Shown piece after piece: positions 1 through 39,487 of a stretch of 64,000 nucleotides of DNA (positions within the stretch are counted from its first letter, which is position 1; every line of letters starts with the position of its first letter). This stretch comes from a virus: positions 64,001-128,000 of the IMG/VR virus record IMGVR_UViG_3300032308_002246; one strand, given 5' to 3'. The notes under the pieces were generated by a model. The model was given only the letters and a program-made list of their open reading frames with translations, had not been told where the DNA came from and made no database searches. Both the position numbers and the translations under genes were made by a program.

Positions 1-2254
1 ATAAGTCAGCGGAAATTACTTCCTCATCATCTGTCCATCTCAATAAATTTTCTTGAGCTGAATCCATCAACATTTCGGTGGTTGCTTCATCCAATCCAAG
101 GAACTTTGCTCTTTTTTCTGGCGTCATTTTTTTTAGAGCGTTGTAAGTTCTTGAGTTTTTGCTAAATTTTAAATACGACTCCCAGGTCTGCGATACACCG
201 TCCCTGTTCATCCAGCCATCAAAGAAATTTTGGGTATAAAGTGCTCCGGCTAAATCCGTAAAATTTATCTTCCCATTTGATAAACCGGTTATTCGTTGCG
301 CTGTTTCAAACGCCCCATCAAGCGAGAGTGGTTGCATTTCATCCAGAAAGCTAATCGCTTGGTTCTTGCGTCTGGCTATTCCACGTCTTCCAAGTTCTTC
401 GGCAAAACCAATCAGTTCATCATCTGAAAGCTTTGACAAAACAGCCAGTCTGCTTGTAATTTTTACATTATCTCTAGAGTCAATATTTTTAACGAACTCA
501 GAGTTTTCAATTGGGAGATTTAGGTCTGTTTCTTGACTCAATCTTTCTTGCGTCTTATCTAGAGCCAATTCCGGGTTTGATGCAATTACTTCTGAACGGG
601 CTCTTCTGAGCGCCTCCTTGTGGTCAACTAACGCCGTATCTAGTGCGTCAGCAATTTCCGCAAATCTAAGCATTGCTACTGATGAATCTTCGTTCGCTGC
701 AAGATTTGGCAAATATGTTTCGTATGCTTCGTTGAAAGTAGGCATACCTCCACGCATGAACATTGACATTGCAAATGCATTAAATACTGAGCCAAGTAGG
801 GATTTGTCTAACTGCGTTCCTGCTTGTTCGTCTGAAAGTTCTCTTGTTTTTTCTGCAAAACCAACAAGACTTCGGAACATTTGATGTCTTGTTAAATCGG
901 TTAATCTTCCTTCTTCGTCTTTTTCACCAAACACTCTGTAAGAAGGAAAATCGTATTCTATTGTTGCATCTTGCATTGACTCGACTATTGCTTTGGCGCC
1001 AAAAGAAGCAAGAGAATCGCCGGATTTCAAAAAATCAACCATCTGTGTTGCGTAGTCAAAACCTATGTTGCTTGGAACATTGTGATTTCCATAATTTGGA
1101 TACAGCCCAGTAAGTGCTGACATCCTTGCGTTTAGTCCATCTTCTATTGATATAGAAGCTATTTTCTGATACTCATTTAGAGCCGCATCAAAATCAATTT
1201 CTTCTAAATCAGATGACCTGAGCTTTTGTAGAAATAGTGATGAAAGTTGTTCAAATTCAGTGTCCCACCATTCTGTGGCTAATTTTGCGGTTTCTTCATC
1301 AAAAAGTTGCCTTGCAAGCCCCTCTCGTCCAATGATTGTTTTGAGTTTTGCAAAATTGGCTTCGTCTACTTCTGCTTTTGTTTTTTCAATATATCTTTCG
1401 TAGAAACCAGACCCTTCTGCGTCTGGTCCGAATATTACTTCTAGTATTTTTTTTCTTAATTCTGAATCTTCTGGGAGGTCAATCTCTCTTGGGACTTCGC
1501 TCATGTAGGAGCCGTATTTTCTTTCACCTACTGACTTGTGTTTCAAAGAAACTGCACCTATAGGGCCACTTGGTTTTTCTTCAGTCGCTTTCGGTGCTGG
1601 GCGAAGCCTATTTGACTCTTTTGGAGCTCTTGGTCTTTCTGTGGCCGATGCTTTGGGTCTTGGGGTTTTATCAATGCTTACTTCTGGCAGTGGCGGGGTT
1701 ATTCTTGGCTGTGGTTTAACAACATCCTGAAGGTTGGTAGTTGCTGCATCGGTAGTAGCTTCAATCTGATTGCCCCCTGGGGTAGGGTCTGGAATTCCGC
1801 GGCCAAAATTTACTTCAGCTACACCCTCAAGAACCAACTTGTCTTTATCTGCGTCGACAGCCGTATTCGGGTCCATATTTCTTGGAGCAACACCAATTGG
1901 CTGACCAACATTTGGTCCAAGGGCTTTTTCTTCTAGTTCTTTTTTGTTGATTACACGTCTTACTCTCTGAGCAAAATCTCTGTCTTGGTTTCTTCTACCA
2001 AGAGGGCTCGCCCCAGTGACTCTTCTATAGTCAGACTCGTTGGTGCATGGCATCCACAGGTATCCGCCAGTGGTTGAGTTGTACTGTCTGACCCCAATGC
2101 ATCCAAGCTGTCTTGCCCTTTGCCTAGCTGATTCTTTATCTGTAAATGAGTCAATAGAGCCTGGTCTTATTGCTCTTGAGCCAAAGCTAAGAGACTTTTC
2201 TTGGTTCCCATTTTCTATTGGGCAACAGTCGCCCTGCTCAAAATCGTTGGTCAT
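1..2254 (-). CDS. Large head-associated protein, partial (>=751 aa, runs off the left edge; missing from the ORF track)
   Basis: Hand translation from ATG at 2254 (GAGGG upstream) gives MTNDFEQGDCCPIENGNQEKS...; the frame is open where checked and in frame at position 2. Contains LGCIGVRQYNSTTGGYLWMPC, KALG...DADKDKLVLEG...DPTPG and GPIGAV motifs shared with neighbouring ORFs. Confidence 0.85.
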   Translation of the reverse strand, partial: MTNDFEQGDCCPIENGNQEKSLSFGSRAIRPGSIDSFTDKESARQRARQLGCIGVRQYNSTTGGYLWMPCTNESDYRRVTGASPLGRRNQDRDFAQRVRRVINKKELEEKALGPNVGQPIGVAPRNMDPNTAVDADKDKLVLEGVAEVNFGRGIPDPTPGGNQIEATTDAATTNLQDVVKPQPRITPPLPEVSIDKTPRPKASATERPRAPKESNRLRPAPKATEEKPSGPIGAVSLKHKSVGERKYGSYMSEVPREIDLPEDSELRKKILEVIFGPDAEGSGFYERYIEKTKAEVDEANFAKLKTIIGREGLARQLFDEETAKLATEWWDTEFEQLSSLFLQKLRSSDLEEIDFDAALNEYQKIASISIEDGLNARMSALTGLYPNYGNHNVPSNIGFDYATQMVDFLKSGDSLASFGAKAIVESMQDATIEYDFPSYRVFGEKDEEGRLTDLTRHQMFRSLVGFAEKTRELSDEQAGTQLDKSLLGSVFNAFAMSMFMRGGMPTFNEAYETYLPNLAANEDSSVAMLRFAEIADALDTALVDHKEALRRARSEVIASNPELALDKTQERLSQETDLNLPIENSEFVKNIDSRDNVKITSRLAVLSKLSDDELIGFAEELGRRGIARRKNQAISFLDEMQPLSLDGAFETAQRITGLSNGKINFTDLAGALYTQNFFDGWMNRDGVSQTWESYLKFSKNSRTYNALKKMTPEKRAKFLGLDEATTEMLMDSAQENLLRWTDDEEVISADL

Positions 2255-10991: not shown

Positions 10992-10992
10992 G

Positions 10993-18880: not shown

Positions 18881-20380
18881 CTAGTTGAGCTCTGTTTGAG
18901 GCTTTGATTCGTCTTGGCTGTTAGAAAAACCCTCTTCAGCCGCAATCATTTCAAACTCAAGAAGCGTTGAAAGGAAATTATCTGCTGCAGACTTTTCTCC
19001 AGTTTCAAATCTCTTTTTAGTTTCTTCATCAACCCAGCCATCTGGAATGATATTTTCAAGACCCAGTGCCATTGCTCTTTTCATGATATGCATCTTTGCA
19101 ACATCACTCTTTGAGCGTTCCCATGCCATGATTGCATTTCTTAGGTCCATCTCGTTAGCAATTGGGAACTTACCGTCTTCCATTGCTTCGCCAGACTCTG
19201 ACATTTCTTTCTTTTGAATGTCGCTATAAGAACGCTTCAGAGCAATTTCAGCAGCTTCGGCTTCGATTGCGAGAGCTTCGTCTTGAGTGTACTCGTCGTA
19301 CCCAAGAACATCGCCATCAAGCGAAACGAACACATCGTAGGACTTTCCGTCAATGCCTTCAATTTCTACTGCGTATGCGTCAAAGCCCTCAAAAATGTCT
19401 GCTTCAACAGCTACAACATCGCCCTGAATGCTCTTTGTTGCGATACCGGCAGCTTCGCTAAATGAAATTAGATTTGTTGGCTGAAAACCAGATTTAACCT
19501 GCAGAACTTCTTCGTTCAACATGTGCCAGCCCATAACTTCGCCGGTTGAACCGTCAAAGAAGATTTCAATTGGCTTTCCGTCTTTTCTTTCAACATCAAC
19601 AACAAACATATCAGCGACATCTGAATAGCCAGAATCAAGAACCTTGCCGCTAAACATGTCTTCAGCTCTACCTTCAATTTCAAGTAAAGCTGGCATGTCG
19701 CCTTCTTTAACACAGCCGCCTGGGCAGTTGTCGCAAATTCCAGATGCACCTGGATAAACCTTACGCTCAATTGCGCATACGAATACATCAGAGCCAAAGT
19801 CTTCAGACTTATAACCCATGCTTCTTAGTCTTCTGTTCTCCATCATCTGACGATTTGGTATTTCGTCTTCTTGCTCTGGCATTTCTTCATCAAGCTCTTC
19901 TTCTTCAACGAGCTCTTCTTCTGCCATCGGAGCCATCTGTCTTTTTCTTTTTGGAGCCGAACGCATGGCGAGCATTTCATCCATGTCGTCGTCCATCTCC
20001 GTTTCGTCGTCTTCAATGTCCATGTCCTCTTCGTCCATGTCCATTTCTTCGTCGTCCATTTCTTCTTCGTCATCTTCTTGGACGTCGTGTTCTTCATCTT
20101 GGTAGACATCGCCATAAGCTCTCATGGCTGCCTTTTCTTCTGCCATTTCCATTTCCATCATTGGCTTCTTTTTCTTTTTTGGCATTGGGGCAGGCATGTC
20201 TTCATCCATTTCCATGACTGCATCGTCCATCATCTTCATGGAAACAGCCATAGCTCCGCATTTGCCACAGACCTTGTCTCCAGCTTTATAACCACACTCG
20301 GAAGAATCAAGACCTTTTGCACACTGAACAAGTTCTCCGTCAGCATCAATTTTTACCATAGGACCGTCACCCATTGCCAT
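18881..20380 (-). CDS. Acidic head protein (possible scaffold): Cys clusters, D/E/M-rich tract, two PepSY-like repeats, DUF6582-like C-terminus
   Basis: ISFSEAAGIA..IQGDVVAVE...AYAVEIEGIDGKSYDVFVSLDGDVLG is PepSY-like; GEAMEDGKFPIANEMDLRNAI is DUF6582-like. Confidence 0.7.
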   Translation of the reverse strand: MAMGDGPMVKIDADGELVQCAKGLDSSECGYKAGDKVCGKCGAMAVSMKMMDDAVMEMDEDMPAPMPKKKKKPMMEMEMAEEKAAMRAYGDVYQDEEHDVQEDDEEEMDDEEMDMDEEDMDIEDDETEMDDDMDEMLAMRSAPKRKRQMAPMAEEELVEEEELDEEMPEQEDEIPNRQMMENRRLRSMGYKSEDFGSDVFVCAIERKVYPGASGICDNCPGGCVKEGDMPALLEIEGRAEDMFSGKVLDSGYSDVADMFVVDVERKDGKPIEIFFDGSTGEVMGWHMLNEEVLQVKSGFQPTNLISFSEAAGIATKSIQGDVVAVEADIFEGFDAYAVEIEGIDGKSYDVFVSLDGDVLGYDEYTQDEALAIEAEAAEIALKRSYSDIQKKEMSESGEAMEDGKFPIANEMDLRNAIMAWERSKSDVAKMHIMKRAMALGLENIIPDGWVDEETKKRFETGEKSAADNFLSTLLEFEMIAAEEGFSNSQDESKPQTELN

Positions 20381-20573
20381 TTTTTTGCTCCTTGTATTGC
20401 ATGGTTGTCGAAAGACAACCCTTTGGGCTCATGCATCCACCACACGGAAACTGGCGCTTTTCGCCAGCAACAATGCACTGATACTTTGCCTTAGAACTGT
20501 TTTCTTTAGTAGGTTTAGCATAACCCATAACAGGGTTCTTGCGGTTGTACCCACTTTTTCTTTCTGTATTCAT
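20367..20573 (-). CDS. Small Cys-rich protein (68 aa)
   Basis: Fills the gap between co-oriented genes; CIVAGEKRQFPCGGCMSPKGC resembles a Cys cluster in the adjacent 499-aa protein. Confidence 0.55.
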   Translation of the reverse strand: MNTERKSGYNRKNPVMGYAKPTKENSSKAKYQCIVAGEKRQFPCGGCMSPKGCLSTTMQYKEQKNGNG

Positions 20574-20577
20574 AAAA

Positions 20578-21078
20578 CTATTTACTTCTGTTTTTCCATT
20601 TTTCCGGAATCATGTCTTGCCGCCCCAAAGATATGGCTCTTTTTATTATGTGCTTTTTTGCTCTGGCCTTGTTTTTTGCTCGACCATAAGCATAAATTGC
20701 GTTCTCTAAATCTGATTCATTTTCAATTGGGTATGAGCCATCAGGTAATGCCATCCCGGTTTTTGCAAGCTTTTCACGTGATTCTTCGCTGAACAATCTT
20801 TTTTCATTTAAGTAAGAAAGCTCGTTCAATTTATTCACAAGTTCGTCAACCAAAAGTGGACCCATTGATTTAGCGTCAACAAGCACTACGCCTTTTTCGT
20901 TTGCAGATGACTCAAATCCGTATTTTTCTAGAATTTGGTCAACTTCTGTTTTGAGATTGAATATCTCCGACAATTCACTTTGGATAACAATTTCTTCTTG
21001 AAGCGTATTGTCAAGAGATTCAAGACTTTTTATTGACATTTCATATTTGTTTGTTTGAGTTGAAGTATATATTTTCAT
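20578..21078 (-). CDS. DUF6582-like head-associated protein
   Basis: GMALPDGSYPIENESDLENAIYAYGRAKNKARAKKHIIKRA motif. Confidence 0.7.
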   Translation of the reverse strand: MKIYTSTQTNKYEMSIKSLESLDNTLQEEIVIQSELSEIFNLKTEVDQILEKYGFESSANEKGVVLVDAKSMGPLLVDELVNKLNELSYLNEKRLFSEESREKLAKTGMALPDGSYPIENESDLENAIYAYGRAKNKARAKKHIIKRAISLGRQDMIPEKWKNRSK

Positions 21079-21084
21079 ATGAAA

Positions 21085-24000
21085 TTACCCTCTATCTCGT
21101 GGAACCGTGATTCCAGGTATGTTGTATCTTGGGAAGTTGGATGAGTAAAGCCTTGTTGGGTCCTCAAGTGACACTCCGCTTCTCGTCTTTTCCATTGCAT
21201 CAATCTGTGAAACACCATCAACATCTCTGTTCTCAAGCATTTGCCTTCTGAGTTGCAGATAGAACCAGTTCCTTCGTTTTTGAAGCTTTGGAAGGTAAGA
21301 CACAAGCTTTCTTACTTCGGCTTTTTTCTTATCACGAGCATCTCCAGCATGTGTCCTCATTCTTGACAAATACTCAAGTCTTCCGATGATTGTGTCAAGG
21401 GCTGCGTCTGAAGCTGTCCATCCAGAGAAAAGCATGTATTCAGAAGCTTCTTCGGCACCACCATATGGAAGAACGGCATCACCTTCTTCGTACTCTCTTA
21501 TGGCGGCTTCCGCGTTGCCCTTTGTCACTCTTGCACCATTTCTTCTAACTGGGTCATTTGATACATATCTGCTCCCAGGTATTCTTCTCATTTCCCCAGC
21601 TGGCCCATCGTCAAATGGGAGTTCTGGCTGTTCGTTTTCAAAAACCCCAGATTCAATGATTGGGTTCTGGGGTTGCTCTTGTCTTTGTGGTGGGTTTTGT
21701 GAAGAAACCCGTGATGGGGCGAATGGATTAAATGTTCTGTCGTTTCTGTCCATTCTCTTAGCACCACTAAGAGCCTCAAGCCTGCTGTCAAAAGGACGGC
21801 TAGCCGTAACATTCCTGTTAGCCGTGTCAATTATCACCCACTTGCCATCTTGGGTTGGTTTTATGTCGTATCTTTGCGGAACAAAACGTCTGCCCATTGC
21901 GCCAACAGGACCACCATCGCCGCCGTCAGAACCATATGGAGGACTGTTGAACAACTTGTTAAGTTCTTCAATTTCACGCGCAGTGTCTACGTCAATGTCC
22001 GGTTCAGTCGTTTCTTGACCATATGAGAAATAACCAGCATAAGGTCCGCCAAGGTCATCTATTTCTTCTACTGAGCGTTCATTGCCATTTGCATCGTAAA
22101 GTATGTTCTTGTTTCTTTCGGTTGCTGATTGGAACCAATCAGAAAATCCATCTCCAAGCTCTGCTCTTCTTCTTGCAATAAGTCTCTCAAATGTCTTGCG
22201 TCTATCGTTCTGAATCATCCGCTCAGCTCTCTCAAACGGGGTCATCAAAGCTGCCATACGTGCCTCAAGTATTTCTTTACCCTTTTTGGAGTAATCAACA
22301 ACTTGATTTGCAGATATATCTAAATCTCCGGCGACAGAAAGAATATCGTAAGGCATTCCATCCATCTCGCCCATTTCATCTCCACTCATTTGTGAGTCAA
22401 ATATTCTTTGCGTGAGGTAGTGATGAATATCAATTAAGTCATCGTCTGTCGGATTTTCCCAATCCCTGTCTTCAATCGTAGAAAATCTTTTTCCAATTTG
22501 TTCTGCAACAATTTTCCAGTTGTCGTCGCCGTAAACCTCGTAGAGCCTTCTGTCAACATGCCTACTACCGCTAATTGGGTTTTCAGGCATTGAACCAGAA
22601 GACATAAGCCCAACTGGACCTTGAGGGGGATTCTGTTGTATTTCTCTAATCGCGGCTTGTGCGTCTTCTGAGTCAAAGTATCTTCTTTGAATTTCTCTAC
22701 CAACAGATTTTAGCTCTTTCATAATTGCAGATTTAGCGGCTCTGTCTTTTCGATGCGGTCTTCCATATGAACCGAATAGCTTTTCCATTGCATCGTTCCA
22801 TGCGCTCACAAGTTCATCATCAGACATATCTGAAACATTTTTGCCAGACATTGCCCCAATAGGTCCAAAATCATCATAAGAAAGATTCATCTCCCTGTAG
22901 GCATAGTCTATATTTTTAATCAACTGCCTTGGGCTCATGTCTGAGTCAATGCGCATTTCAAGTTCATCAAATGTAATGTCTCCAGATTCAAGCTGACTTA
23001 TAATTTCATCAACGGCATCAAGTGAGCGTATTTCATTTGCTCTTTCTCTATCTACAACATTTAGTCTTCGTCTTATATTTTGCTGACTGGTTGAATGTCT
23101 CTGAGCAAGCTGCGCTATTGCTTGTCCCTCTGGCACCGATGAAAGCAAATCTGTCAATTCGTTGTAAATCTGAATGTTGTATGAATCGTCAATTTTTCTT
23201 TCTTCTGTATCTCTAGGTCTTACATACCTTCCCATTTTCCCAAAAGGAGAAGAATTCATTTCTGGGTCAAATGGCATTGTCCCAGAAATCTCGTATTCAC
23301 CATTTTCAAGCCTCGTAATAGAAACACCAAACTCATCCACATATGGACCATTTGCAGTTTTCATTATTCTCTCAAGTGCGGCGTATCTGTCTAAGACATC
23401 GTTAAGCTGCGAGTCATTCCTGTTAGCAGAATTAAGTATTCTAGAAAGCAATCTTTGCGATTCAGCTTTTCTTTGTGCATTCGGCATTGACGCATATGTT
23501 GAATCGTGCTTATTTGGTTTCCAAAATTCAGTTGGAGAATAGTTTGGAACACGTGCGGCGTTCAATCCCAGTGAACCAACCGGGCCGGTATCAAAGCTAT
23601 TAATTTGATTTTGTCTACTTGCTCTAGCAAGTTTTTCTTTGGCTCTGTTGTAGGCTGCAATATCTGAAGCACTTGACACCGCAAAACTTCTTCTGTCTCC
23701 GCCAATTCGACGGCTCAATTCATCTAGTGAATACGGCAGAGATGTTGGTATTGGTTCTGCAGTTGACCTAACGGCAATCATGTATGGGTCAAATATCTTT
23801 CGTTGGCCATCTGCTTTGTCTGTTGCATGTAGAGATACATTGCCGTCTGCATTTTTGACAAACTTGACAAGTTCAACTGCGTAAACTTTATTTCCGTATG
23901 GGAACTCTGCGTCAATCACATCCCTGTCTGCTGTTGCCAGCGTATTTGCAACGGTTCCTTGATTATCGTCAAGAGATATGAACAAAGTTCTGTCTCGTGC

Positions 24001-27000
24001 ACCCCTTCTGAGCGCAGTTGTCTGAGCAACGATATCAGCAGTTCTTTTCTGCCTCTCTGTTTGTCTTTCCTTTGGTCTGGCTTGCTCCTCACGTGGTGGA
24101 GTTCTTTCTTGCTGACCGGGCTGTTCCTCTCTTGGTCTTCTGTTGCCTGAATCCTCTTCAGTGGGTCTGCTAGTTGATTCATTGCGAGGTCTGCGTTCAC
24201 CACGTGGTTCTCTGCGTGGTCTTCTTTGACCCGTCTCGTCTTGCGCCTCCGCCTCTGGTTTTGGTTTCTCAGACTTTCTTCCGTACATTCTGTCAGTTCT
24301 AAAATTCTTTTCCTTACCGTCTTTTTCATCAATGCCGACGATGTATGCGCCAAGAAGTTCGCCGTCTCTGCCAAAACGCTCTTCGTATCTTGGTTCGGTA
24401 ACTGTTCTTTTTTCTGGTCTGTCTGCATCTGGTTTTAGATATTCAAAAGAAATTCCAAGACCGGAATCGCTTGCATCATTTACTGCTTTTTTGATGTCTG
24501 ATTCGGTGAAGTTTTTGCCAAGTATTATTTCGGTATCTGTTTCAATAACAGGAGCAGATGAGTCAGAGCCAAGACCATAAAGGCCAAGCTTTTCATATTC
24601 CGCTTTTATCTCTTGTGCAGTTACTGTTTCCCCAGCCTTTGTCCTTATGTCTGCTTCAATTTCCCATGGCTTTGCCGAAATGAATACGCCATCTGTTGCT
24701 GGATGTCTTCCTCTTTGGGTTCTAATCTTTTCTGTAGTTTCATCAAAGATTTCACCAAGTTCTTCTTGTGGCCAGTCTTCATATGAGAACAGGTCCCCAG
24801 CTACTGGGTGATTCCATTTGACCAGATTGCCATTGTCGTCTTCTGCAACCAAAAATACTGGACCAGTAGAGTTTGAACCAACATTCTTGTGTTGATACTT
24901 AGTTATCTCTCCGGTCAACTTGTTTACATATGTAGAAACAAATTTTCCATCGTCTTCAACTTCTGATTTGTCTATGGCCGGTTCGCTAACTCCAACTGTT
25001 GGAGAGCTTGGTCTTGTAGAAGTTTGTCCAGTTTGTCTGGCAGCACGATTTTCTGCCATTCTTTGTTTTGTTAGGTTTCGTAGTCTGTCCCACTGCTCAG
25101 GCATCAAGCCACCATCAATGTCGTACCTATACAGAATTTTTTCAATCTCTGCATCATCCTGTTCAAGCATTCGTGCAGCATTTACTAAACGTTTTGCATC
25201 TTCTGGGTCTGCGCCAAGCAGTTCTCCAGTTTCCTTATTTACTTTAAGTACAGCTTCTTCTCCTGGCGCAAGAGTGTATCCACCATCTCCGCTTTCGAAC
25301 TTGTCAATCAATGACGATGCGTAAGACCACTGTCTATCTGAAAGACCGCCATTTTTTGCGTACTGGTAGTACATGTCGCTTAGAACTGAATAGTTCTTTT
25401 CTGGGCCAGTAAGGTCTTTTTTATCTTTTGAGTTTACTGTTGCTCTAAGAGCATCAAAATCTGGACTATTTCTAAGCGTGTGAATTTTTTCTATCACCGA
25501 AGGACCGAAGTCTGGAGTGTTTGGACTTTTAGTAACAGACAAGTCATCGCTACCTTGGAATCGCCACTTCCATGAGTCCATGGTCCAGAATTTTTCATCA
25601 GGTCCACTTTCAAGTCTTCTTAACTTTTTATTTCTGGCTACTCGTTTTGCATTTCTTTCATCCTCATCCCAGCTCTCAGACATATCAGAAGTTGCAAAAA
25701 CTGTACCGCCGAGCCTGAAGTAGGAAGGCTCGCCATCGTATCCAGCGCGGTCATTCCAAGAAACAACTCTCAAACCTTCTCTTGGAGAAGTTTGAATTGG
25801 TATAGGACGCAATTCTTCAGTTCCATCTGAGTTAAGGAATAAACCTTGTGGAAACATTTCATCGTCAAGGAACATTCCACGCTCAGCAGCTCTAGCCATT
25901 GCCTGAGCCTCAGTTTGAGTAACAAATGAATACTCTGGAGTATCAACAACCATGTAGTTGTATCCACCATCTTCTGCCAAAAGTTTTCTGCCCAACATTT
26001 CGTGCAGTTCTGGTTGGTTGAATCCACGCACTCTGCGGAGGTATGGCTTCTCCTGCATTGGAACACCGTCGGCAAGGTCTTCTGTAAAGTCGTATTCTTC
26101 TACTATTCCATCGTCTGCATTGGCATAAATTCGTACTTTTTTGTTCTGTCGAATCGCCATTGCACCAATCGGACCATCTGAAAGGTATTCGTTTATTTCA
26201 TTGTCTAGTTCTGTCTTGCCTATGTATTTTCTATACAGGCTGCCGTCGCTTGCATCTGCTTCAACAAAAAATCCTTCGTCGTCAACTCCGTATCTGGTGT
26301 TTGAAACGGATGGCGGCTTTGACGTTGAGCCATCTGCTTTTCTTAGAGTGCGCAAAGACTTTGTCAACCTTGAATCAACATCGTCAATTCTTAAATTGAA
26401 ATCTTTTGCAATATCTGCATTTGTTGCGCCGTAGAGTTTTTGAGACATTATGTCTCTATCTGTTCCATCAAGCAGGTAACCGTGTTCTCTCATCAGGTAG
26501 CGCATCTCAGAGCGCTCTGGGGTCTCTGTAGCAGAGAGAATGGTTGCTTGTGCTTTTACAATCTTTACAACATCATTTCTTGAAATATCGTTGTCTTTTG
26601 CTATTTGCTCAATTGATGAATTTCCAAAACTTGAGTAAACATTTCTCATCAGCTTTTCTGGGTATGAACTCTCTTCATTGTTGTCATTGCTGATGATTCT
26701 GTTTATTGCTTTTACTGCACCAGAAGGACCGTCTGGAGCGTTGATGCCGGAATAGGGTTCTCCGGTTACCGAGAAGTTACTCAAAAAGCTGTTTATTATG
26801 TTTGGAAGATACTCGTCAAGCTCTGCGTCATCAGAGTCGTTTTGTTTTAAGTAGCTCTTCTTACGACCGGTTGAGTCAAAAACTTCAGATGCAAAACCAT
26901 CCGGAAGAGCTCTTTCATACGAAGACATTCTGCCAACAGGGCCTGAGCCCAAACCTCTTTTGGCAATTTCTTTTCTTACTTCTTCTAATGTGTCTTCTCC

Positions 27001-30000
27001 AAGATTTGTTAGTGCAACTGCATAGTTGATTTCTTCTTGCAATTCAGAAACTTTTTCTAAATCTCTTTCAATTCTTGCAATTTTCTTACGCTCAAGTGCG
27101 TCCATGATGTCGTCTTTTATTTCTACAACATACTTATCAAACTTTTGCAGATTTTTTAAAAGTGATTCATCGCTGAGCTTTGGAATTTCTTCTTTAATTT
27201 TTCTGCCAGCTATAGAAGAAATTTTTCTCATTTCTTCTGCTGTATCTATGGAGTCAAGTAAATCAATATCTTCTTTTGTTAGTTCGTCAATCATTGCTCT
27301 CTGTAGAGAGTCGGCAAGCGCATTGTTGGCTTCATCCGAGCCCCTTGGGTACCCAGCAATAGTGTCTGTTTCAGGAGTTAGTTCAAGCCCACTTAGTCTT
27401 GGTCGCTCTGGTGATGGTGCTGCGTCTAGTCCTGTCCCACGAAGTCTTGGGCGCTCAGTCGGTGCTCCTGGTGTTATTGCAGTTCCACGCAATCTAGGTC
27501 TCTCTGCAGGGGTTTCTGTCGTTAAACCAGTCCCACGAAGTCGTGGTCTTTCTGGTGATGATTCTGGTGGAGAAACTCTTATTCTTGGTCTTTCTGTAGG
27601 TGTTTCTGCAGATGTTGTCGGTGGAGAAACTCTTATTCTTGGTCTTTCAATTCTTGATGCAGGGCTTCCGTCGCCACGGTCAAAAACTACACCATCTTCT
27701 CCATCATCAATTGAATCAAAAGATTCATCAAAACCATCAAAATCAACAAAGGAGTCTCCTGTCGACATTCTTCCAACAGGTGCGCTGTAGAAAATCCTGC
27801 TAAAAGGTTTATCTTTTAGAGTCCTATCTTGACCTTTTAAATCGTCGACAGACTCGGCTGCCCTTATTGACTCCGTCCATTTTGCATTGGCCATTGAGCC
27901 AACAGGCCCATTGTCAATCACCATGGAGTCTTGCAACTTTCTCATTGCAATCTGTTCTTGTCTTCTTACAGTTTGTCTATCTGTGCCAAGTCTTGCTGCG
28001 GCTTCTTGGAGAGTCTCCCCATCAAGTCTTCTCTTCATCAAATCTGTTTGTTCGTCGGTAAGAGTTGAAGCAGGGTCATCAAGCATTCTTCTTGTTACTC
28101 TGTTTGGACTGTTCTCATCCATGCCACGAAGTTTTGACATGTGTCTAAGCTCAAGCTGTCTTGCTTTTTGTCTTGAAACTTTGAATCTCGAAGCCGCTTC
28201 TTCAAGTGAAATTCCATCATTTTCTCTTGCAAGGAATATTTGTCGTCCAAGTTTTTCTTCTCTAAGAAGTCTTTTTTCTCTTGCTGTAAGAATCGAGTCG
28301 TTTGGCAAGGAAGACATTGCTCCACGTGGGGAATCAACATCAATTACTCCTGCTTCTTCAGGTCTCATTACATATGGGAGGTCTCTGTTATTTCTTCTTC
28401 CCATTTCATTTATGTATCTCTCAACGGTTCTAGGAGAAATTTTAAACTTACGGGCTACTTGTTCATAAGCTCTTTTTGTATTTTTATCTTTTGATACAGT
28501 ATTGAATTCATTGAATACTTTTTCCGCAGTATCCATGTCAACTGGTCGTTGGTCTTGTGGGAATCTTCTTCCATCAGCCATGCGACCTACAGGACCACTA
28601 GATGCTCTCTGTGGGACTCTTTGTGGAACTGGTGTTCTAGTTGGAACAGGAACTCTCTCAGGTTCTCTCTGTGGCACTCGTTCAGGAACTCGTTGCGGTT
28701 CTCTCTGTGGAACACGCTCAGGAACTCTTTCTGGTTTTCTTTCAGGAACAGTTGCTGGTCTTGCTGGTTTAATTGCTGGCTTGGCTGGTTGTACTTCTGG
28801 AATTTCTTCCGGAACTTCAACTGGTCTTGGGACAGCAGGCATGTCTGCTTCGCCAGGTCTCTTGGCGCGTCTTGGTTTAGATACGCCTCTCTTGCCTCGA
28901 GACCTTGGTGCTTTTGGGATATCAAAATCACTCCCAGGAGTTGGGTCAACTACGCCACGCCCTCTGTTGATAGTTGGAATTCCTTCAAGAACATATAGGT
29001 CGTTATCAGCGTTACGGGCAGTAAACGCATTCATATTTCTTGGTGTTCTCCCAATTGCATTACCAATAGCTTTTTGTTCAAAAGAATCCAATACATTTGA
29101 TAAAGCTTTATAAGCAGCAACACTGACTTTGTCAATGTCTGGAATAACAATTCCGTTTTCTAAAACTTTTACATCAAATGAATGGTATTCAGCAATTGTG
29201 TTGATTATTTCAAAAGCTTCAATTTTCTCTGCATTATCTTCTGGCTCCAAGAAAAGATGTTCGCCTCTATTTGCAGACTTAAACTCTTCAAGTGTGCTTA
29301 GATGATTTGGAACCGAGCATAATGTTTCACCTTTTGCGCAATCGTCACAACATGCTTCATGTGGAACAGCAGCCGAAGACATTGCGTCGTAAAGACTTCC
29401 ATTTGTTTGTGGCATGGATATGACCATTGCACTAGGTGTTCCACTGTCACCGATACGACTTCCGTTTGAATTATTTGTAGGTATATAGACGGTTTCTGGT
29501 TTTACTTGTTGCGCCGTTCCGAACATAAACTCATCACCATCAAAGTGGTAAGCGACTCTTAGTGTCTCAACAGCCTGACCGGCACCCATCTCAAAAATTG
29601 CAATGTCGTTATCGGCGTTAACTAGTCTTACCGCTCCGCCAAAGTGTGAAGCAAGTGCTCTTGTCAGGTCAGCCGCTCTTCCAACTACTGAGTTTTCTGA
29701 ACTGTTCATTGCCTCGTAAATTGCGCTTACATGGTTTTTTGTTTCCGAGCTTTCGCTGTCGTCTTTTTTCTTTGTATTGCTATAACGCTCAAGGAGTCTT
29801 CTTCCTTTTGCAGCAAGTTTTGCAGCGTCTTCCATATTCTTTGGAACTGGCTCACCCCATGCAGCCGCCGAAAGAGCAAGTCTTGTTGGTTCTCCATTTG
29901 GCTTTTTCATTGGGCCAGATGGGTTTGTAAAAAATCTTGTGAGAAATGAACCCTTGCGGCGCATCTTTTCTGGTGTGTCAGCTGGACCCTTAACGCCAGG

Positions 30001-30657
30001 CTTTAGATTTGCTCCTTCTGTTCTCTTGAAATGAGCACGACCGGCTGCGGTTAAACCGCCCTTTGGGTCTCTTAGCGGCTGACGTTTTACATCTATCCCA
30101 TCTTTGTTTTCGTTAACAGCTTCATCCGATTTTATTGAAATAGTGCCGGTCAGCTGGTTTGCTCCATGGAGAACAGGAGAAACTTCGTAAAGCTCAACTT
30201 CTTTTAAGAGATTGGCTTGCTGGGTTGGGTCAAAAACTGCATCAAGAGTTTTGTAGCCTATTGACCACTCCTGCTCAAGACCAAAGAATGACACATTTGC
30301 AAATGCCTCACGGCCTCTTTCGGCTTTGAGGTTAAATTGCACTCTTGCGTAAAGGCCACCTATTCCAGCCTTTCTCATCTTCGCAGGAAGACGAGGGTCA
30401 TTTGGACCAACTTCATAGATTTCTAAAACTTTGCCAATTGGCTCATTCCAATTGTGACCCCATACGACCCGAGGTTTTCTTCTTTTCAGGGAGTTCGTGA
30501 AACATCCTGGAAGGCAAATATCGCCGACGGAGTCCTTGTTGCCAACACCAGCAGCGAAGCACTCGACTATGCCAAGAGCCTCGTCAATATTGAATTGCCC
30601 TGTCAGGGACTTGTATTCGTAGTCAGCTGCTGTTTCGTGTGTGTTAGTCATGGTCAC
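21085..30657 (-). CDS. HK97-family prohead protease fused to a ~3000-aa multidomain extension (DUF6321-like, several sigma-r4-like HTH, two WYL-like domains)
   Basis: First ~175 aa: DSVGD...WGHNWNEPIG (His), WSIGY (Ser), LYEVSPV..GAN; sits directly downstream of the portal gene; DPKGGLTAAGR..RRKGSFLTRF is DUF6321-like. Confidence 0.9.
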   Translation of the reverse strand: MTMTNTHETAADYEYKSLTGQFNIDEALGIVECFAAGVGNKDSVGDICLPGCFTNSLKRRKPRVVWGHNWNEPIGKVLEIYEVGPNDPRLPAKMRKAGIGGLYARVQFNLKAERGREAFANVSFFGLEQEWSIGYKTLDAVFDPTQQANLLKEVELYEVSPVLHGANQLTGTISIKSDEAVNENKDGIDVKRQPLRDPKGGLTAAGRAHFKRTEGANLKPGVKGPADTPEKMRRKGSFLTRFFTNPSGPMKKPNGEPTRLALSAAAWGEPVPKNMEDAAKLAAKGRRLLERYSNTKKKDDSESSETKNHVSAIYEAMNSSENSVVGRAADLTRALASHFGGAVRLVNADNDIAIFEMGAGQAVETLRVAYHFDGDEFMFGTAQQVKPETVYIPTNNSNGSRIGDSGTPSAMVISMPQTNGSLYDAMSSAAVPHEACCDDCAKGETLCSVPNHLSTLEEFKSANRGEHLFLEPEDNAEKIEAFEIINTIAEYHSFDVKVLENGIVIPDIDKVSVAAYKALSNVLDSFEQKAIGNAIGRTPRNMNAFTARNADNDLYVLEGIPTINRGRGVVDPTPGSDFDIPKAPRSRGKRGVSKPRRAKRPGEADMPAVPRPVEVPEEIPEVQPAKPAIKPARPATVPERKPERVPERVPQREPQRVPERVPQREPERVPVPTRTPVPQRVPQRASSGPVGRMADGRRFPQDQRPVDMDTAEKVFNEFNTVSKDKNTKRAYEQVARKFKISPRTVERYINEMGRRNNRDLPYVMRPEEAGVIDVDSPRGAMSSLPNDSILTAREKRLLREEKLGRQIFLARENDGISLEEAASRFKVSRQKARQLELRHMSKLRGMDENSPNRVTRRMLDDPASTLTDEQTDLMKRRLDGETLQEAAARLGTDRQTVRRQEQIAMRKLQDSMVIDNGPVGSMANAKWTESIRAAESVDDLKGQDRTLKDKPFSRIFYSAPVGRMSTGDSFVDFDGFDESFDSIDDGEDGVVFDRGDGSPASRIERPRIRVSPPTTSAETPTERPRIRVSPPESSPERPRLRGTGLTTETPAERPRLRGTAITPGAPTERPRLRGTGLDAAPSPERPRLSGLELTPETDTIAGYPRGSDEANNALADSLQRAMIDELTKEDIDLLDSIDTAEEMRKISSIAGRKIKEEIPKLSDESLLKNLQKFDKYVVEIKDDIMDALERKKIARIERDLEKVSELQEEINYAVALTNLGEDTLEEVRKEIAKRGLGSGPVGRMSSYERALPDGFASEVFDSTGRKKSYLKQNDSDDAELDEYLPNIINSFLSNFSVTGEPYSGINAPDGPSGAVKAINRIISNDNNEESSYPEKLMRNVYSSFGNSSIEQIAKDNDISRNDVVKIVKAQATILSATETPERSEMRYLMREHGYLLDGTDRDIMSQKLYGATNADIAKDFNLRIDDVDSRLTKSLRTLRKADGSTSKPPSVSNTRYGVDDEGFFVEADASDGSLYRKYIGKTELDNEINEYLSDGPIGAMAIRQNKKVRIYANADDGIVEEYDFTEDLADGVPMQEKPYLRRVRGFNQPELHEMLGRKLLAEDGGYNYMVVDTPEYSFVTQTEAQAMARAAERGMFLDDEMFPQGLFLNSDGTEELRPIPIQTSPREGLRVVSWNDRAGYDGEPSYFRLGGTVFATSDMSESWDEDERNAKRVARNKKLRRLESGPDEKFWTMDSWKWRFQGSDDLSVTKSPNTPDFGPSVIEKIHTLRNSPDFDALRATVNSKDKKDLTGPEKNYSVLSDMYYQYAKNGGLSDRQWSYASSLIDKFESGDGGYTLAPGEEAVLKVNKETGELLGADPEDAKRLVNAARMLEQDDAEIEKILYRYDIDGGLMPEQWDRLRNLTKQRMAENRAARQTGQTSTRPSSPTVGVSEPAIDKSEVEDDGKFVSTYVNKLTGEITKYQHKNVGSNSTGPVFLVAEDDNGNLVKWNHPVAGDLFSYEDWPQEELGEIFDETTEKIRTQRGRHPATDGVFISAKPWEIEADIRTKAGETVTAQEIKAEYEKLGLYGLGSDSSAPVIETDTEIILGKNFTESDIKKAVNDASDSGLGISFEYLKPDADRPEKRTVTEPRYEERFGRDGELLGAYIVGIDEKDGKEKNFRTDRMYGRKSEKPKPEAEAQDETGQRRPRREPRGERRPRNESTSRPTEEDSGNRRPREEQPGQQERTPPREEQARPKERQTERQKRTADIVAQTTALRRGARDRTLFISLDDNQGTVANTLATADRDVIDAEFPYGNKVYAVELVKFVKNADGNVSLHATDKADGQRKIFDPYMIAVRSTAEPIPTSLPYSLDELSRRIGGDRRSFAVSSASDIAAYNRAKEKLARASRQNQINSFDTGPVGSLGLNAARVPNYSPTEFWKPNKHDSTYASMPNAQRKAESQRLLSRILNSANRNDSQLNDVLDRYAALERIMKTANGPYVDEFGVSITRLENGEYEISGTMPFDPEMNSSPFGKMGRYVRPRDTEERKIDDSYNIQIYNELTDLLSSVPEGQAIAQLAQRHSTSQQNIRRRLNVVDRERANEIRSLDAVDEIISQLESGDITFDELEMRIDSDMSPRQLIKNIDYAYREMNLSYDDFGPIGAMSGKNVSDMSDDELVSAWNDAMEKLFGSYGRPHRKDRAAKSAIMKELKSVGREIQRRYFDSEDAQAAIREIQQNPPQGPVGLMSSGSMPENPISGSRHVDRRLYEVYGDDNWKIVAEQIGKRFSTIEDRDWENPTDDDLIDIHHYLTQRIFDSQMSGDEMGEMDGMPYDILSVAGDLDISANQVVDYSKKGKEILEARMAALMTPFERAERMIQNDRRKTFERLIARRRAELGDGFSDWFQSATERNKNILYDANGNERSVEEIDDLGGPYAGYFSYGQETTEPDIDVDTAREIEELNKLFNSPPYGSDGGDGGPVGAMGRRFVPQRYDIKPTQDGKWVIIDTANRNVTASRPFDSRLEALSGAKRMDRNDRTFNPFAPSRVSSQNPPQRQEQPQNPIIESGVFENEQPELPFDDGPAGEMRRIPGSRYVSNDPVRRNGARVTKGNAEAAIREYEEGDAVLPYGGAEEASEYMLFSGWTASDAALDTIIGRLEYLSRMRTHAGDARDKKKAEVRKLVSYLPKLQKRRNWFYLQLRRQMLENRDVDGVSQIDAMEKTRSGVSLEDPTRLYSSNFPRYNIPGITVPRDRG
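27390..27650 (-). repeat. Tandem coding repeats ERPRIRVSPP / ERPRLRGT (about 6 copies)
   Basis: Visible in both the protein and the DNA (ggtggagaaactcttattcttggtcttt occurs twice). Confidence 0.8.
28600..28750 (-). repeat. PERVPQRE low-complexity coding repeats
   Basis: PERKPERVPERVPQREPQRVPERVPQREPERVP in the protein. Confidence 0.8.
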
Positions 30658-30710: not shown

Positions 30711-30742
30711 GTTTATATAAACTTAGTTGAATTTATATAAAC
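30711..30742. promoter_or_regulatory. Tandem AT-rich palindromes (GTTTATATAAAC and ATTTATATAAAC) upstream of the protease gene; candidate operator
   Basis: Perfect 12-bp palindrome at 30711-30722 and a near copy at 30731-30742, 20 bp apart. Confidence 0.45.
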
Positions 30743-32985
30743 TAGTCTTTATCAAACCTCAACCTACACCTGCAATTGATTGTTAGGTGCGGTGGGGCAA
30801 ATGGGTCTCCAGGGAATCTGAGCAAGTTGCCACCCATATCAAACGCTTCTAAAACACCAACTGACTTGCCATGTAAACCGGCATGTTCTGGTCTAACTTT
30901 CGGGTCTTTTTCTGTAATCCATGTCTTTGTCATTGCGCCAATTGAACGCCCAGACAAATAGGTTCCTGCGTTGTATGCGGTTTGACCTTCATGCTCGGCG
31001 ATAAGTCTTTTGCGCTTCATCAAAAGATTTATAAAAATTGCTACAAGAGCAGCCTTGAGCATTCCAACTTTGTCTTCCCCGTCGGACATTGATGATGCAA
31101 CAAGAACGGCTGCGGCAACTTCTGCAGCCGTGGTGGAGTTCACATTCTCCATTCGCTCCATCTGTGAATCAAGATGCTCTTTTACCGCATCCTCATCCAT
31201 CTCCGCCTGCATTGATGCTTCCTGAGAAACGACACTTGATGCGTCGTTCATTATTCCGCTGAGAATTGGTCTTATGTCCTCATTGAGTTGCTTGTTCCAT
31301 ACAGCGATGTCAAATATCGCCTCTGGGTCAAGTGACTTTGATTCAATATTCTTTCTTGCTTTGCTTCCAGCAGCTTTTTCCATGATTACTCTCTGCTGTC
31401 TTTCAAAGAATCTTTCAAGTGATGCATCAAGTATTTCAATCCATCTATCAGATGACTCCTCCGCCTTTGAATCCCACTCGTCGGATATATAGGAGCTAGC
31501 CCCTTCGGCTTTTGTTTGTGGCCCACCCATTGCTGTTGCTTGTTGAGCGGCGATTGCTTCTGCAGTCAAAGCCGCAGTCATACCTTCGCCTGGGCCACCT
31601 TGAGGAGCTACTTGAGGACCAAATCCGGGAACTGGCATTTCTTGTGGAGTTGCAGTTGCTCCAGGTGTTGGAGGCATTCCGGGAACTGGTGGCATTCCAG
31701 GAACTGGAGCACCGCCACCCATCATGTCAAGTTGTCCTTGTTGTGCAGGTTCAAACTTTTTGTTTGTGTATCCGATTGGTGTCAAGTTTGGATTAGCAAG
31801 CATTGCGTCCATTAGTTCGGAGTCAATCTTTCCGCGCCCAGCACCTTCTCTATATTCGTTTCCACTTATTAAACCACTCTGGTATTCGTTTAACAAATAT
31901 CTATCTCGTTCTTGCTTGTAGAGAACTAGAACAGGAACATCGGTAACGTCAAAGTCAACATAGTATTTTGAATGAAGTTCGTCTAATCCACGGGCCAGAG
32001 TTTCTAGATGCGGGAGCATCGTCTCATTCCAGAAAACCTTATGCTCTTCTGCTGCGTTGCTAAAAGTTCTTCCTGAAGCATTACCAATAACGGATTCCGG
32101 AACGCCAAAAGCAGCAAGTATTTCTTCTTTTTGTATTTGACGCATTTGCACATAGTTTGCATCTCGTGGTGATTGACCTGTATCAACAAAGTCAACACCT
32201 TCGTCAGAAGAAACAACAGTCACAGCACCAGCCCTGTTTATGTTCCCTCTAAAACGACTTCTCAATTCATCTTTATCATCATCGTCAATTTCTCCTCTAA
32301 CAACAAGGAGGCCGCCTGGTCTTCCGTCATTGAGCAAGAAGTTTCTGTTGTAAATCTTTGACAAGTTTTCAATTTCTATAGCAATACCAGCAGCTTCCAT
32401 TGGGGTTAATGAAAGGTATGGGTCTAGAGGGTGTGGCTTTCTAATCCAAACAACATCTTCTGGTTTTAGAATTACTTTTGTTCCGTTGCGCATATCAACC
32501 TCAAAACCGGAAACAAATTTTCTTGGGTCTGGTATTGGCGCAGTGTGTTGTGGTGGCAAAAGCTGAAGAGCAATCAGCTGACCATCTCTGCCTCTTACTT
32601 TTTCAATGAATGCACCACGAGAAGACATGAGCAGTTGCGAAGAGAGTCTGTACCTAAAAACAAAAGAGTTTTCACCCATGTTTGATTTAGTGTTTAGTAG
32701 GTTGAGAATGCTCTCATCTGACTCTCGAATAATTTTTCCAGTCGGGCTATTGTTTTCACGCAAGATGGCTGGGAGTCTTGATTGGTTTCCTGCAATTGCG
32801 TCAATGCACCTATTGACCCAAGTAACCTTTTGAAAACCCTCGCGGTAAGCTCTTTCTATATCCCAAGAGTCTCTGTATGGCTTTCCAGCCATTGAAGGGT
32901 TGAACGCAACCGGTGCTCCTGGTCCAAGCGCAGACTTCTGCTGTGACTGGTTAATAGACTTATTTTGCGACGAATTCCAAGCCAT
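30742..32985 (-). CDS. HK97-family portal protein fused to a C-terminal MuF (gpF-like head morphogenesis) domain
   Basis: Portal motifs (WVNRCIDAIA, NFLLNDGRPGG, EILAAFGVP, ISGNEYR); C-terminal KTWITEKDPKVRPEH...LRFPGDP...INCRC. Confidence 0.92.
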   Translation of the reverse strand: MAWNSSQNKSINQSQQKSALGPGAPVAFNPSMAGKPYRDSWDIERAYREGFQKVTWVNRCIDAIAGNQSRLPAILRENNSPTGKIIRESDESILNLLNTKSNMGENSFVFRYRLSSQLLMSSRGAFIEKVRGRDGQLIALQLLPPQHTAPIPDPRKFVSGFEVDMRNGTKVILKPEDVVWIRKPHPLDPYLSLTPMEAAGIAIEIENLSKIYNRNFLLNDGRPGGLLVVRGEIDDDDKDELRSRFRGNINRAGAVTVVSSDEGVDFVDTGQSPRDANYVQMRQIQKEEILAAFGVPESVIGNASGRTFSNAAEEHKVFWNETMLPHLETLARGLDELHSKYYVDFDVTDVPVLVLYKQERDRYLLNEYQSGLISGNEYREGAGRGKIDSELMDAMLANPNLTPIGYTNKKFEPAQQGQLDMMGGGAPVPGMPPVPGMPPTPGATATPQEMPVPGFGPQVAPQGGPGEGMTAALTAEAIAAQQATAMGGPQTKAEGASSYISDEWDSKAEESSDRWIEILDASLERFFERQQRVIMEKAAGSKARKNIESKSLDPEAIFDIAVWNKQLNEDIRPILSGIMNDASSVVSQEASMQAEMDEDAVKEHLDSQMERMENVNSTTAAEVAAAVLVASSMSDGEDKVGMLKAALVAIFINLLMKRKRLIAEHEGQTAYNAGTYLSGRSIGAMTKTWITEKDPKVRPEHAGLHGKSVGVLEAFDMGGNLLRFPGDPFAPPHLTINCRCRLRFDKD

Positions 32986-38613: not shown

Positions 38614-38711
38614 GGCTGAGCAAGAAGAATAAAAAGCTGTTCCCAGAAAAACTTACGAACGACAAAAGCTATTCATTTTCAATACTCAAAAAGAAAAAGA
38701 AAAAGAAATGA
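38610..38711 (+). CDS. Small Lys-rich protein (33 aa), not in the ORF track
   Basis: MRLSKKNKKLFPEKLTNDKSYSFSILKKKKKKK*, with ATGA overlaps at both ends. Confidence 0.5.
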   Translation: MRLSKKNKKLFPEKLTNDKSYSFSILKKKKKKK

Positions 38712-39487
38712 CAGAGAACATACATCCATCGCTATCTGGGATGACCATACCAATAAGTCAGCTGCGTCCACTTGAAAATAATCCACGGCGTGGAGATATT
38801 GGTGCGATTATTTCTTCTTTTAGGGAATTTGGACAAGTAACGCCAATAGTTGTTAAAGACAATGGCGATTCAACATTTACCGTCATATCGGGAAACCATA
38901 GGCTTGCGGCTGCAAAACAAATGGGATGGACAGAGCTTGCTTGCATTGATTTTGATGGCAACGATAAATCTGCAATTGCATTTGCCTTAGCCGACAACAA
39001 GACATCAGAGCTTGGAGAAACAGACCAATCAGTATTAATAGAAATGATTAACAGCATTTCATCGGATTATGTCGAGCTTTTTGACAAGCTTGGTTGGGAT
39101 GATTTTGAAATAGCTTCACTTTCGGTTGACGAAATTAGAAGTTCAAAAAACGATAATCGTTCCGGCTATGTTGCTCCACCAGAAGTAAATCCGTTTAAAC
39201 CACAGAATGATGTAGCTCCGTCTGTAGAAAAAAACTCAAACGACGAGAACATCTATGTTGCTTCAGATGAAGTAAACGAGACCGAAGCAGTAACTCGTGG
39301 AAGCTCTGCAGTGAACATCAAGGGTGGAGAAAAAGCTGTAGTCCAATACACGCTTGTTTTTGATGACTCATCACAACAGCGTGACTGGTATGACTTTATT
39401 CGTTACATACGAAATGACCCTGCGTACATGGGTGATACAACAGCTGCCAAGCTGATTGACTTCATTCGTTCTCATGCGGACTTCTAA
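38708..39487 (+). CDS. ParB/Srx-like N-terminal domain protein
   Basis: LRPLENNPRRGD..I..S.REFGQVTPIVV...VISGNHRLAAAK.MGW...ALADNK. Confidence 0.88.
   Translation: MTENIHPSLSGMTIPISQLRPLENNPRRGDIGAIISSFREFGQVTPIVVKDNGDSTFTVISGNHRLAAAKQMGWTELACIDFDGNDKSAIAFALADNKTSELGETDQSVLIEMINSISSDYVELFDKLGWDDFEIASLSVDEIRSSKNDNRSGYVAPPEVNPFKPQNDVAPSVEKNSNDENIYVASDEVNETEAVTRGSSAVNIKGGEKAVVQYTLVFDDSSQQRDWYDFIRYIRNDPAYMGDTTAAKLIDFIRSHADF

Follow-up and report, generated by a model that had tools for sequence, protein, structure and literature searches.

Why should the protease that matures a phage head stand at the front of a chain of 3190 amino acids (aa), and what reads the short peptides that punctuate that chain? 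The question is raised by a locus in the IMG/VR virus record IMGVR_UViG_3300032308_002246, a complete genome of 173,962 bp with direct terminal repeats. We analysed bases 64001-128000 of it (the window, 64,000 nucleotides; positions below are those of the window unless the complete record, G000, is named, and features are on the minus strand unless stated). The open reading frame (ORF) at 21085..30657 encodes a polyprotein, P0001, which begins with an HK97-type prohead protease and carries 13 copies of a motif of the form Gly-Pro-x-Gly-x-Met, henceforth the tag. Taken together, the sequence comparisons suggest that the tag probably marks the points at which the chain is cut inside the capsid.

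A protease-headed polyprotein and its tag

The original prediction, made from the sequence alone, had described an HK97-type protease heading some 3000 aa, and this description holds: the frame is open over all 3190 codons and its Peptidase_S78 domain spans aa 30-173 (30139..30570; Pfam PF04586, 5.2e-11, 43.4 bits against a cut-off of 21; PHROG 80, head maturation protease, 2.7e-30). Two residues of this domain, H68 (in WGHNW) and S132 (in EWSIGY), are invariant across 20 diverse homologues and are presumed catalytic from family homology. The profile match, the conserved His and Ser and the location of the gene in the head module, after the portal gene and on a genome with an HK97-fold capsid gene, all agree with membership of the S78 family. 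The protease is followed by DUF6321 (aa 196-267; 29857..30072; Pfam 5.6e-29) and by at least two DNA-binding modules of the sigma-70 region-4 or helix-turn-helix (HTH) type, namely an HTH or sigma-70 region-4-like module at aa 699-756 (28390..28563; Pfam Mor, HTH_17, GerE and Sigma70_r4 stretches) and a Sigma70_r4 module at aa 865-909 (27931..28065; Pfam 6.3e-11). About 1,000 aa of P0001, as well as several other giant proteins of the head arm (i.e., the block of head genes around it), fell into no recognisable family, and an ESM Atlas look-up of the 857-aa module of P0001 gave no usable match. Searching by sequence for relatives of solved structure returned none for the protease or for two other head-arm proteins, of 852 and 499 aa.

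All 13 copies of the tag reported in the original prediction were found at their positions. In chain order they are GPVGRM at aa 688 (28579..28596), SPRGAM at aa 776 (28315..28332), GPVGSM at aa 917 (27892..27909), APVGRM at aa 959 (27766..27783), GPVGRM at aa 1239 (26926..26943), the weaker, motif-like GPSGAV at aa 1310 (26713..26730; conserved as GPSGA[VI]), GPIGAM at aa 1495 (26158..26175), the likewise weaker GPVGSL at aa 2358 (23569..23586), SPFGKM at aa 2470 (23233..23250), GPIGAM at aa 2598 (22849..22866), GPVGLM at aa 2680 (22603..22620), GPVGAM at aa 2916 (21895..21912) and GPAGEM at aa 3018 (21589..21606). Cutting after each copy would leave 14 segments of 693, 88, 141, 42, 280, 71, 185, 863, 112, 128, 82, 236, 102 and 167 aa.

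We then asked how far the tag departs from chance, using a loose pattern ([GSA]P.G.[MLV]) and a strict one ([GSA]P.G.M). The loose pattern occurs 13 times in P0001, whereas 5000 residue shuffles gave 0.44 copies on average and never more than 4. Across the whole genome, three head-arm proteins (chains of 3190, 5345 and 852 aa; 9,387 aa together) hold all 22 copies of the strict form, and the remaining ORFs (43,915 aa), those for tail, tape measure, replication and capsid proteins among them, hold none, as expected from the forecast that the tag would be confined to the head arm. A slightly loosened pattern raised the count in the three proteins to 31 copies, with the logo [DS]-[GS]-P-[VI]-G-[ASKR]-M-[SAG]; the S, A or G previously noted after the tag follows 25 of these 31. 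All four Gly and three Pro codons are used in the copies, whose 18 nucleotides are only 62% identical in pairwise comparison. Selection therefore acts on the peptide, consistent with the conservation at protein level proposed earlier, and the same codon variety and low nucleotide identity rule out a DNA-level repeat.

The tagging of the 5345-aa and 852-aa proteins goes beyond what the original prediction covered. The former is a second polyprotein, encoded at 50217-66254 of G000 (its first 751 codons being window 2..2254) by an ORF that adjoins the capsid gene; it carries 13-15 copies of the tag, and its Pfam domains (DUF3721, HTH_23, Clp_N, NUDIX and Zeta_toxin) each lie between them. The latter, P0122 (16308..18866), has two strict copies, GPVGQM (18636-18653) and GPIGSM at aa 661 (16869-16886), together with one tag-like SPVGKI at aa 395. 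Two further features of P0122, observed at aa ~240-270 and in two repeats near aa 470 and 725, are an internally duplicated segment (DWFDFWLMANDIQ / DWFGFAFMANDFG), each duplicate shortly after a tag or tag-like site, and a HNDHYDWWMFP motif to which no family was assigned.

Tags in relation to domains, modules and lineages

To locate the tags relative to folded domains, we compared their positions with Pfam matches and with AlphaFold2 (AF2) models. Every Pfam domain of both polyproteins falls wholly between consecutive tags. The model of P0001 aa 600-1560 contains three confident domains (aa 699-772, helical; 791-912; and 1098-1237, also helical), the first two of which take in the HTH and Sigma70_r4 modules, and the tags at 688, 776, 917, 959 and 1239 all lie in linkers with a predicted local distance difference test score (pLDDT) below 50. 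Those at 688, 776, 917 and 1239 are 2-10 aa from the edge of a confident domain: the tag at 688 lies 5 aa before one, that at 776 in the linker joining two, and those at 917 and 1239 lie 5 and 2 aa past one, respectively. In aa 2300-3190, six of six tags are in predicted coil between helices. The proposal that the motifs fall between domains is thus supported by both kinds of comparison.

A word-indexed search returned 253 proteins of 1.9-5.5 thousand aa with the same N-terminal protease, which is N-terminal in 120 of the 120 homologues listed, and more than 559 IMG/VR contigs encode the protease. In nine close homologues we found 8-14 copies of the tag at orthologous columns (the copy at aa 917 in all nine), and every module-scale insertion or deletion had both ends within 1-7 aa of a tag. 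Specifically, P0008 has gained a 100-aa module between duplicated tags at reference position 776 and a C-terminal module after a new GPTGKM, P0002 and P0003 are without the module between tags 688 and 776, and P0005 and P0009 are without a stretch of 295 aa between tags 959 and 1239. Both of the expectations set out for homologues, i.e., conservation of the motif and gain or loss of segments exactly at it, were therefore borne out in this set.

More distant homologues carry unrelated cargo, including ArdC-N with MPTase-PolyVal, UvrD helicases, RNase_T, pentapeptide repeats, WYL, KTSC and HTH domains. The cargo domains of relatives (ArdC-N, UvrD, RNase_T, pentapeptide, WYL, zeta toxin and NUDIX) are of the kind found in polyvalent proteins, giant single polypeptides that each unite 2-15 unrelated domains with effector, DNA-binding or enzymatic functions (Iyer, Burroughs, Anand, de Souza, Aravind 2017; PMC5512222). 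A repeated tag was found de novo in ~108 of the 120 homologues, in forms such as GA.G.M, EAGM[AS], DSGAM, DTGRMS, PTSMS, GLAS, GFAS, GF.S.TG, GLRS, GMRSR, RGM.S, GLSSG and [RK][LF]SSG, with ISGRM, EAGM, G[LFM]xS and R[FL]SSG also named across lineages, and the tag classes form contiguous clades on the protease-domain tree. As we read these forms, all classes seem to follow one scheme: Gly or Arg, one or two places further on a bulky hydrophobic residue (M, L or F), and then S, A, G or, in some cases, R.

Four long relatives (G001-G004) were compared as full sequences. In G001 the tag is DSGAM, with 28 copies spread over four head-arm giants, of which one (3750 aa) begins with the protease. In both G002 and G003 it is ISG[RKQ]M, with 19 copies each and none in a protease ORF of ~785 aa; 17 of those in G002 lie in five head-arm giants and 2 elsewhere, and all 19 in G003 lie in five head-arm giants. 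The local tag is thus almost confined to head-arm giants in these three relatives; no tag was found in G004. Separately, the G003 proteome (L114-L119) includes a very long collagen-like G-x-T-G-x-T repeat with ~75 copies of G.TG.T.

The three tagged proteins of our genome also share, uniquely among the head-arm proteins compared by BLASTP, a ~60-aa element with the invariant core T-A-x-x-A-D-x-D-x-x-V-L-E-G-...-N-x-G-R-G-x-x-D-P-T-P (hereafter the DPTPG element), present once in each. It occupies aa 529-599 of P0001 (28861..29073), after the protease, DUF6321 and an uncharacterised domain, aa 92-161 of the 5345-aa chain (1772-1981) and aa 8-72 of P0122 (18651-18845). A hidden Markov model of the element, which also finds the copy in P0001, matches P0001-P0019 and some head-arm giants of G001-G003. 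In three lineages a tag directly follows it (DPTPG-GPVGQM, DPTPGGE-ISGRM and DPTPFGA-DSGLM); P0122 provides the first case; those in relatives come from G002 (a protein of 1264 aa) and G001 (one of 2180 aa). An element followed by a tag has the layout of a removable targeting peptide, and we regard the DPTPG element as a candidate capsid-targeting element.

In the distant homologues P0027, P0038, P0043, P0053, P0075, P0078 and P0089, a Met/Gly/Pro-rich stretch that is absent from P0001 directly follows the protease domain (alignment columns ~180-209; e.g., GMMAVGM, GMMMPHHEGMG and GPGMGMMGQ) and could be a self-cut region. Among cultured phages (a collection of 50,697 records) we found no relative closer than ~43% identity, and this over the protease domain only; Gordonia phage DalanDe and Microbacterium phage Cece each have the protease towards the C-terminus of a long protein, and the protease protein of Gordonia phage GMA6 has 484 aa. 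Our literature search returned nothing on a protease-headed, tagged architecture or on DUF6321.

Which protein may read the tag

No protease other than the S78 domain is shared by every member of the family; its mean column identity is 73% across all tag classes, and the capsid protein is as conserved across these classes as the protease. A small number of substitutions in the protease are class-specific (e.g., ICLPGCF against V..PGAF, and NVSFFGL against NVAFFGQ). If the bond cut is the one after the hydrophobic residue, the S1 and S1' pockets of the protease would need no change from one tag class to another. In the capsid protein itself, the conserved start of the mature part aligns at S-[IVL]-G (ERRM|SVGD in this clade), which we take to resemble the HK97 boundary K|SLGS; Met precedes this Ser in this clade, Lys in most others. 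A Ser at P1' of this predicted boundary agrees with the proposed cut site in the tag, with no matching by tag class. The candidate idea that the capsid propeptide boundary carries the tag of its lineage was ruled out, the Met-Ser pair of this clade being the only match.

Considering this, we think it reasonably likely that these are polyvalent cargo chains packaged in the capsid, in which the S78 protease cuts at junctions of a hydrophobic and then a small residue. The DPTPG element, and in P0001 also the protease itself, would bring the chains into the assembling procapsid, and the protease would then cut at each tag, most likely after the Met and before a small residue at P1'. Cutting would have to occur in trans as well as in cis, because the 5345-aa and 852-aa proteins are tagged without having a protease; likewise, any reading of the tag in G002 and G003 would be in trans because their protease ORF has no tag. 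The term self-processing used in the original prediction is thus too narrow. The products, ~30 separate modules, would remain inside the head and be delivered to the host along with the DNA, acting as early effectors much as is proposed for polyvalent proteins. Related lineages would keep a ~73% identical protease and use other tags that can still be read as Gly or Arg, hydrophobic and small. More broadly, we hold it an evenly balanced proposition that an abundant clade of large, uncultured phages fills its capsids with swappable effector modules, up to ~9,000 residues in all, by means of a shared ~60-aa leader, a fused protease and a drifting cleavage code (GPVGxM, DSGAM, ISGRM, EAGM, GLAS, RFSSG).

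Several observations weigh against cleavage of the tags by the S78 protease. A protease specific for the tag would be expected to vary with it, and a near-constant domain is found alongside very different tags. The full tag occurs in none of the capsid proteins, and the residue at P1 of their predicted boundary (K, S or M) does not match the local tag class. Some tagged proteins of relatives are without the DPTPG element, and three head-arm giants of our genome (1748, 1466 and 687 aa) are untagged. Two of the 13 copies in P0001 are without Met (GPSGAV at aa 1310 and GPVGSL at aa 2358), and two (GPSGAV and GPIGAM at aa 1495) begin low-confidence predicted helices. The AF2 models also have a low overall confidence, with a mean pLDDT of 49.5 for aa 600-1560 and 41.5 for aa 2300-3190.

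How else might such a distribution arise? The computational predictions that came with the original interpretation all agreed with the sequence data, which are compatible with either role it offered, a cleavage site or a docking linker. Were the tag a docking peptide, each copy would bind in a pocket on the inward-facing side of the HK97-fold capsid protein or of its scaffold domain, pinning the chain at many points and perhaps leaving it uncut. The capsid protein, being as constant as the protease, would make an equally constant partner, and the restriction to the head arm and the location in linkers fit equally well. There is also a precedent in the targeting peptides of encapsulins (native PLTVGSLRRGG, with a widely conserved GSL motif and hydrophobic residues around a Gly hinge; PMC7925596), which are similar to PVGSM, one copy of the tag being literally GPVGSL. 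Nevertheless, encapsulin peptides are C-terminal and the tags internal, the distant classes GLAS, RFSSG and GMRSR are unlike GSL peptides, and loading a single chain requires no tag at every junction. The once-per-protein ~60-aa element is the better docking candidate, and a tag placed right after it, with a strong preference for S, A or G after the Met, is typical of cut sites; we thus consider docking unlikely, though it is the strongest of the alternatives. The near-invariance of S78 across very different tags would be more easily explained if S78 were not the reader and the tags were cut by another protease (of the host, in an undetected phage domain, or a zinc MPTase), perhaps only after injection. 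Capsid proteins without the tag fit this alternative, as do the MPTase-PolyVal domains (PF18818) in about a third of distant homologues, all of the xSSG class, and the residues of P0001 and several giants that belong to no family could hide a protease. Against it, the complete genome has no match to PF18818, S49 or ClpP, and none to S77 (PF03420), for which control genomes gave no signal either; the GLAS, GFxS, GxRS and PxGxM classes are all punctuated with no MPTase seen in their polyproteins, and S78 alone is found throughout. We judge cutting by another protease to be quite unlikely, and the absence of PF18818 from the complete genome rules out the zinc MPTase as the reader here.

The tag might instead be read by nothing, as a flexible hinge or as a scar of module shuffling at a preferred recombination joint. 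Module insertions and deletions bounded by tags are what this would produce, and tandem duplicates of the tag do occur (e.g., ISGRMTSISGRM and FSSGDRFSSG). However, copies with varied codons and 62% identical DNA offer too little for homologous recombination, six positions including the Met and the following small residue are kept in 31 copies, and orthologous copies are kept across homologues. Moreover, each lineage homogenises its own tag across several genes, which points to a reader acting in trans and makes a hinge or scar very improbable. Finally, most copies end in ATG with the GG of a Gly codon 4-6 nucleotides upstream, as if the Met were an internal translation start giving nested in-frame products in the manner of lambda C/Nu3. 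We find this hardly credible: a 4-mer resembling a Shine-Dalgarno sequence precedes 1 of 23 tag Mets, whereas it stands before 35% of true gene starts and 7% of the remaining internal Mets, and on this count internal starts were ruled out. In addition, the Pro and the Val or Ile upstream are conserved at the amino-acid level, V, L or I takes the last position in some copies, and Met-free tags are in use in distant lineages.

Cleavage of the tags by the S78 protease, if true, would mean that double-stranded DNA phages use a polyprotein strategy, and would provide a natural, reprogrammable system for packaging and releasing proteins, in which leader, tag and protease could serve to load foreign proteins into HK97-fold capsids. 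The tags also offer a simple rule for splitting thousands of phage residues into candidate effectors, among them anti-restriction-like, kinase, NUDIX and DNA-binding modules. As a natural series of tag variants set against an almost fixed protease, the family lends itself to the study of protease and substrate co-evolution.

The head arm and known cargo systems

A tail sheath gene at 44066-45523 assigns the phage to the myoviruses. Its head-arm genes form one block on the minus strand, which at ~46 kb takes up about a quarter of the genome and encodes five proteins of more than 800 aa. The portal protein, fused to a MuF domain (30742..32985; Pfam Phage_portal 8.8e-51, Phage_Mu_F 7.6e-10), lies directly upstream of P0001; then follow two acidic, scaffold-like proteins without the motif (P0124, 166 aa, and P0123, 499 aa; 18881..21078), the 852-aa protein, proteins of 1748, 153, 201, 687, 1466, 140 and 277 aa, the 5345-aa ORF and the capsid gene. 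The latter is of the HK97 type (PF05065, 2e-43), lies outside the window at 48550-49872 of G000, and is on the same strand as the protease gene, ~35 kb downstream of it. The 1748-, 1466- and 687-aa giants (3588-16239) have no Pfam or PHROG match and no DPTPG element. P0124 and P0123 share a C-terminal domain of ~70 aa (DG.[FY]PI...DL.NAI.A..R...), which recurs towards the C-terminus of the protease proteins of Microbacterium phage Cece and of the Gordonia phages GMA6, DalanDe and ChisanaKitsune. Other Microbacterium phages have this domain in proteins annotated as hypothetical, and it may serve in scaffolding or in binding the capsid. On the plus strand, at 38708-40650, a ParB_N-like gene is directly followed by a PAPS-reductase-like gene (PHROG 2302), a pair that is kept in the close relative L004 and may serve in DNA modification or host takeover. 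Searching for a host of the virus matched only mis-binned contigs of metagenome-assembled genomes.

How does this system relate to those already described? Polyvalent proteins are encoded among virion genes and, according to PMC5512222, are predicted to be delivered with the DNA and cut into units; their assemblin-like peptidases are always C-terminal, processing is attributed mainly to the zinc MPTase, and the processing itself is presented there as a question still open. Their domain repertoire is similar to the one seen here (ArdC-N with MPTase, UvrD-type helicases, exonuclease, zeta-toxin-like kinase, NUDIX and HTH), and P0001 (S78, DUF6321 and the DNA-binding modules), the 5345-aa chain and the chains of relatives are multi-domain in the same sense. 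By contrast, the protease of P0001 is an N-terminal S78 domain, there is no MPTase in the genome, and the chains are punctuated by a lineage-specific tag; the protease and cleavage passages of PMC5512222 describe neither an N-terminal protease fusion nor a punctuating tag.

The closest working analogues are the internal proteins of T4 (IPI-III and Alt, with a capsid-targeting sequence and gp21) and the head and ejection proteins of phiKZ and SPN3US (gp175/gp245; PMC9026906, PMC5694885, PMC10052503). In those systems the prohead protease acts at a short consensus on cargo that has been sent to the procapsid; the cut cargo is kept in the head and later ejected into the host. Their order of targeting element, cut motif and cargo resembles the layout of P0122, where the DPTPG element and the tag are candidates for the first two roles. 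Those phages, however, use a gp21-family protease, a hydrophobic-x-Glu or A-x-E motif and separate cargo genes with usually one or a few sites and no fusion, whereas our genome combines an HK97/S78 protease, fused to cargo, with a Gly-x-Met-small tag ([GS]P[VI]GxM[SAG], without the T4-type hydrophobic-x-Glu) at 13-15 sites per chain. If confirmed, an HK97-type scheme would thereby join, as the third, those by which T4 and phiKZ load and release the proteins that they inject.

HK97 itself has a protease (gp4) and a capsid protein (gp5, with an N-terminal delta domain) of the same families. Gp4 is co-assembled inside the prohead via a C-terminal targeting segment that is able to carry foreign proteins, and gp5 is cut before Ser104 (K|SLGS), a boundary kept as K/M|S[IVL]G in the capsid proteins studied here. 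Gp4, of ~225 aa, carries no cargo and destroys itself, and we know of no multi-site polyprotein substrate for it. RNA-virus polyproteins (e.g., with picornavirus 3C sites) also join functional units in one chain, with a protease embedded in it and a short conserved motif at the junctions; their protease fold and genome type are unrelated, and the chains described here hold the accessory cargo of a double-stranded DNA phage, not a whole proteome. Encapsulins likewise address cargo to the lumen of an HK97-fold shell by a short peptide rich in Gly and hydrophobic residues, whose likeness to the tag is limited to V-G-S-[ML]; their GSL-type peptides are usually single and uncleaved at the C-terminus, whereas the tags are internal, repeated up to 15 times per chain and accompanied by a protease. 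Within polyvalent proteins and protease-processed capsid cargo, what we describe is a distinct architecture with a lineage-specific tag code.

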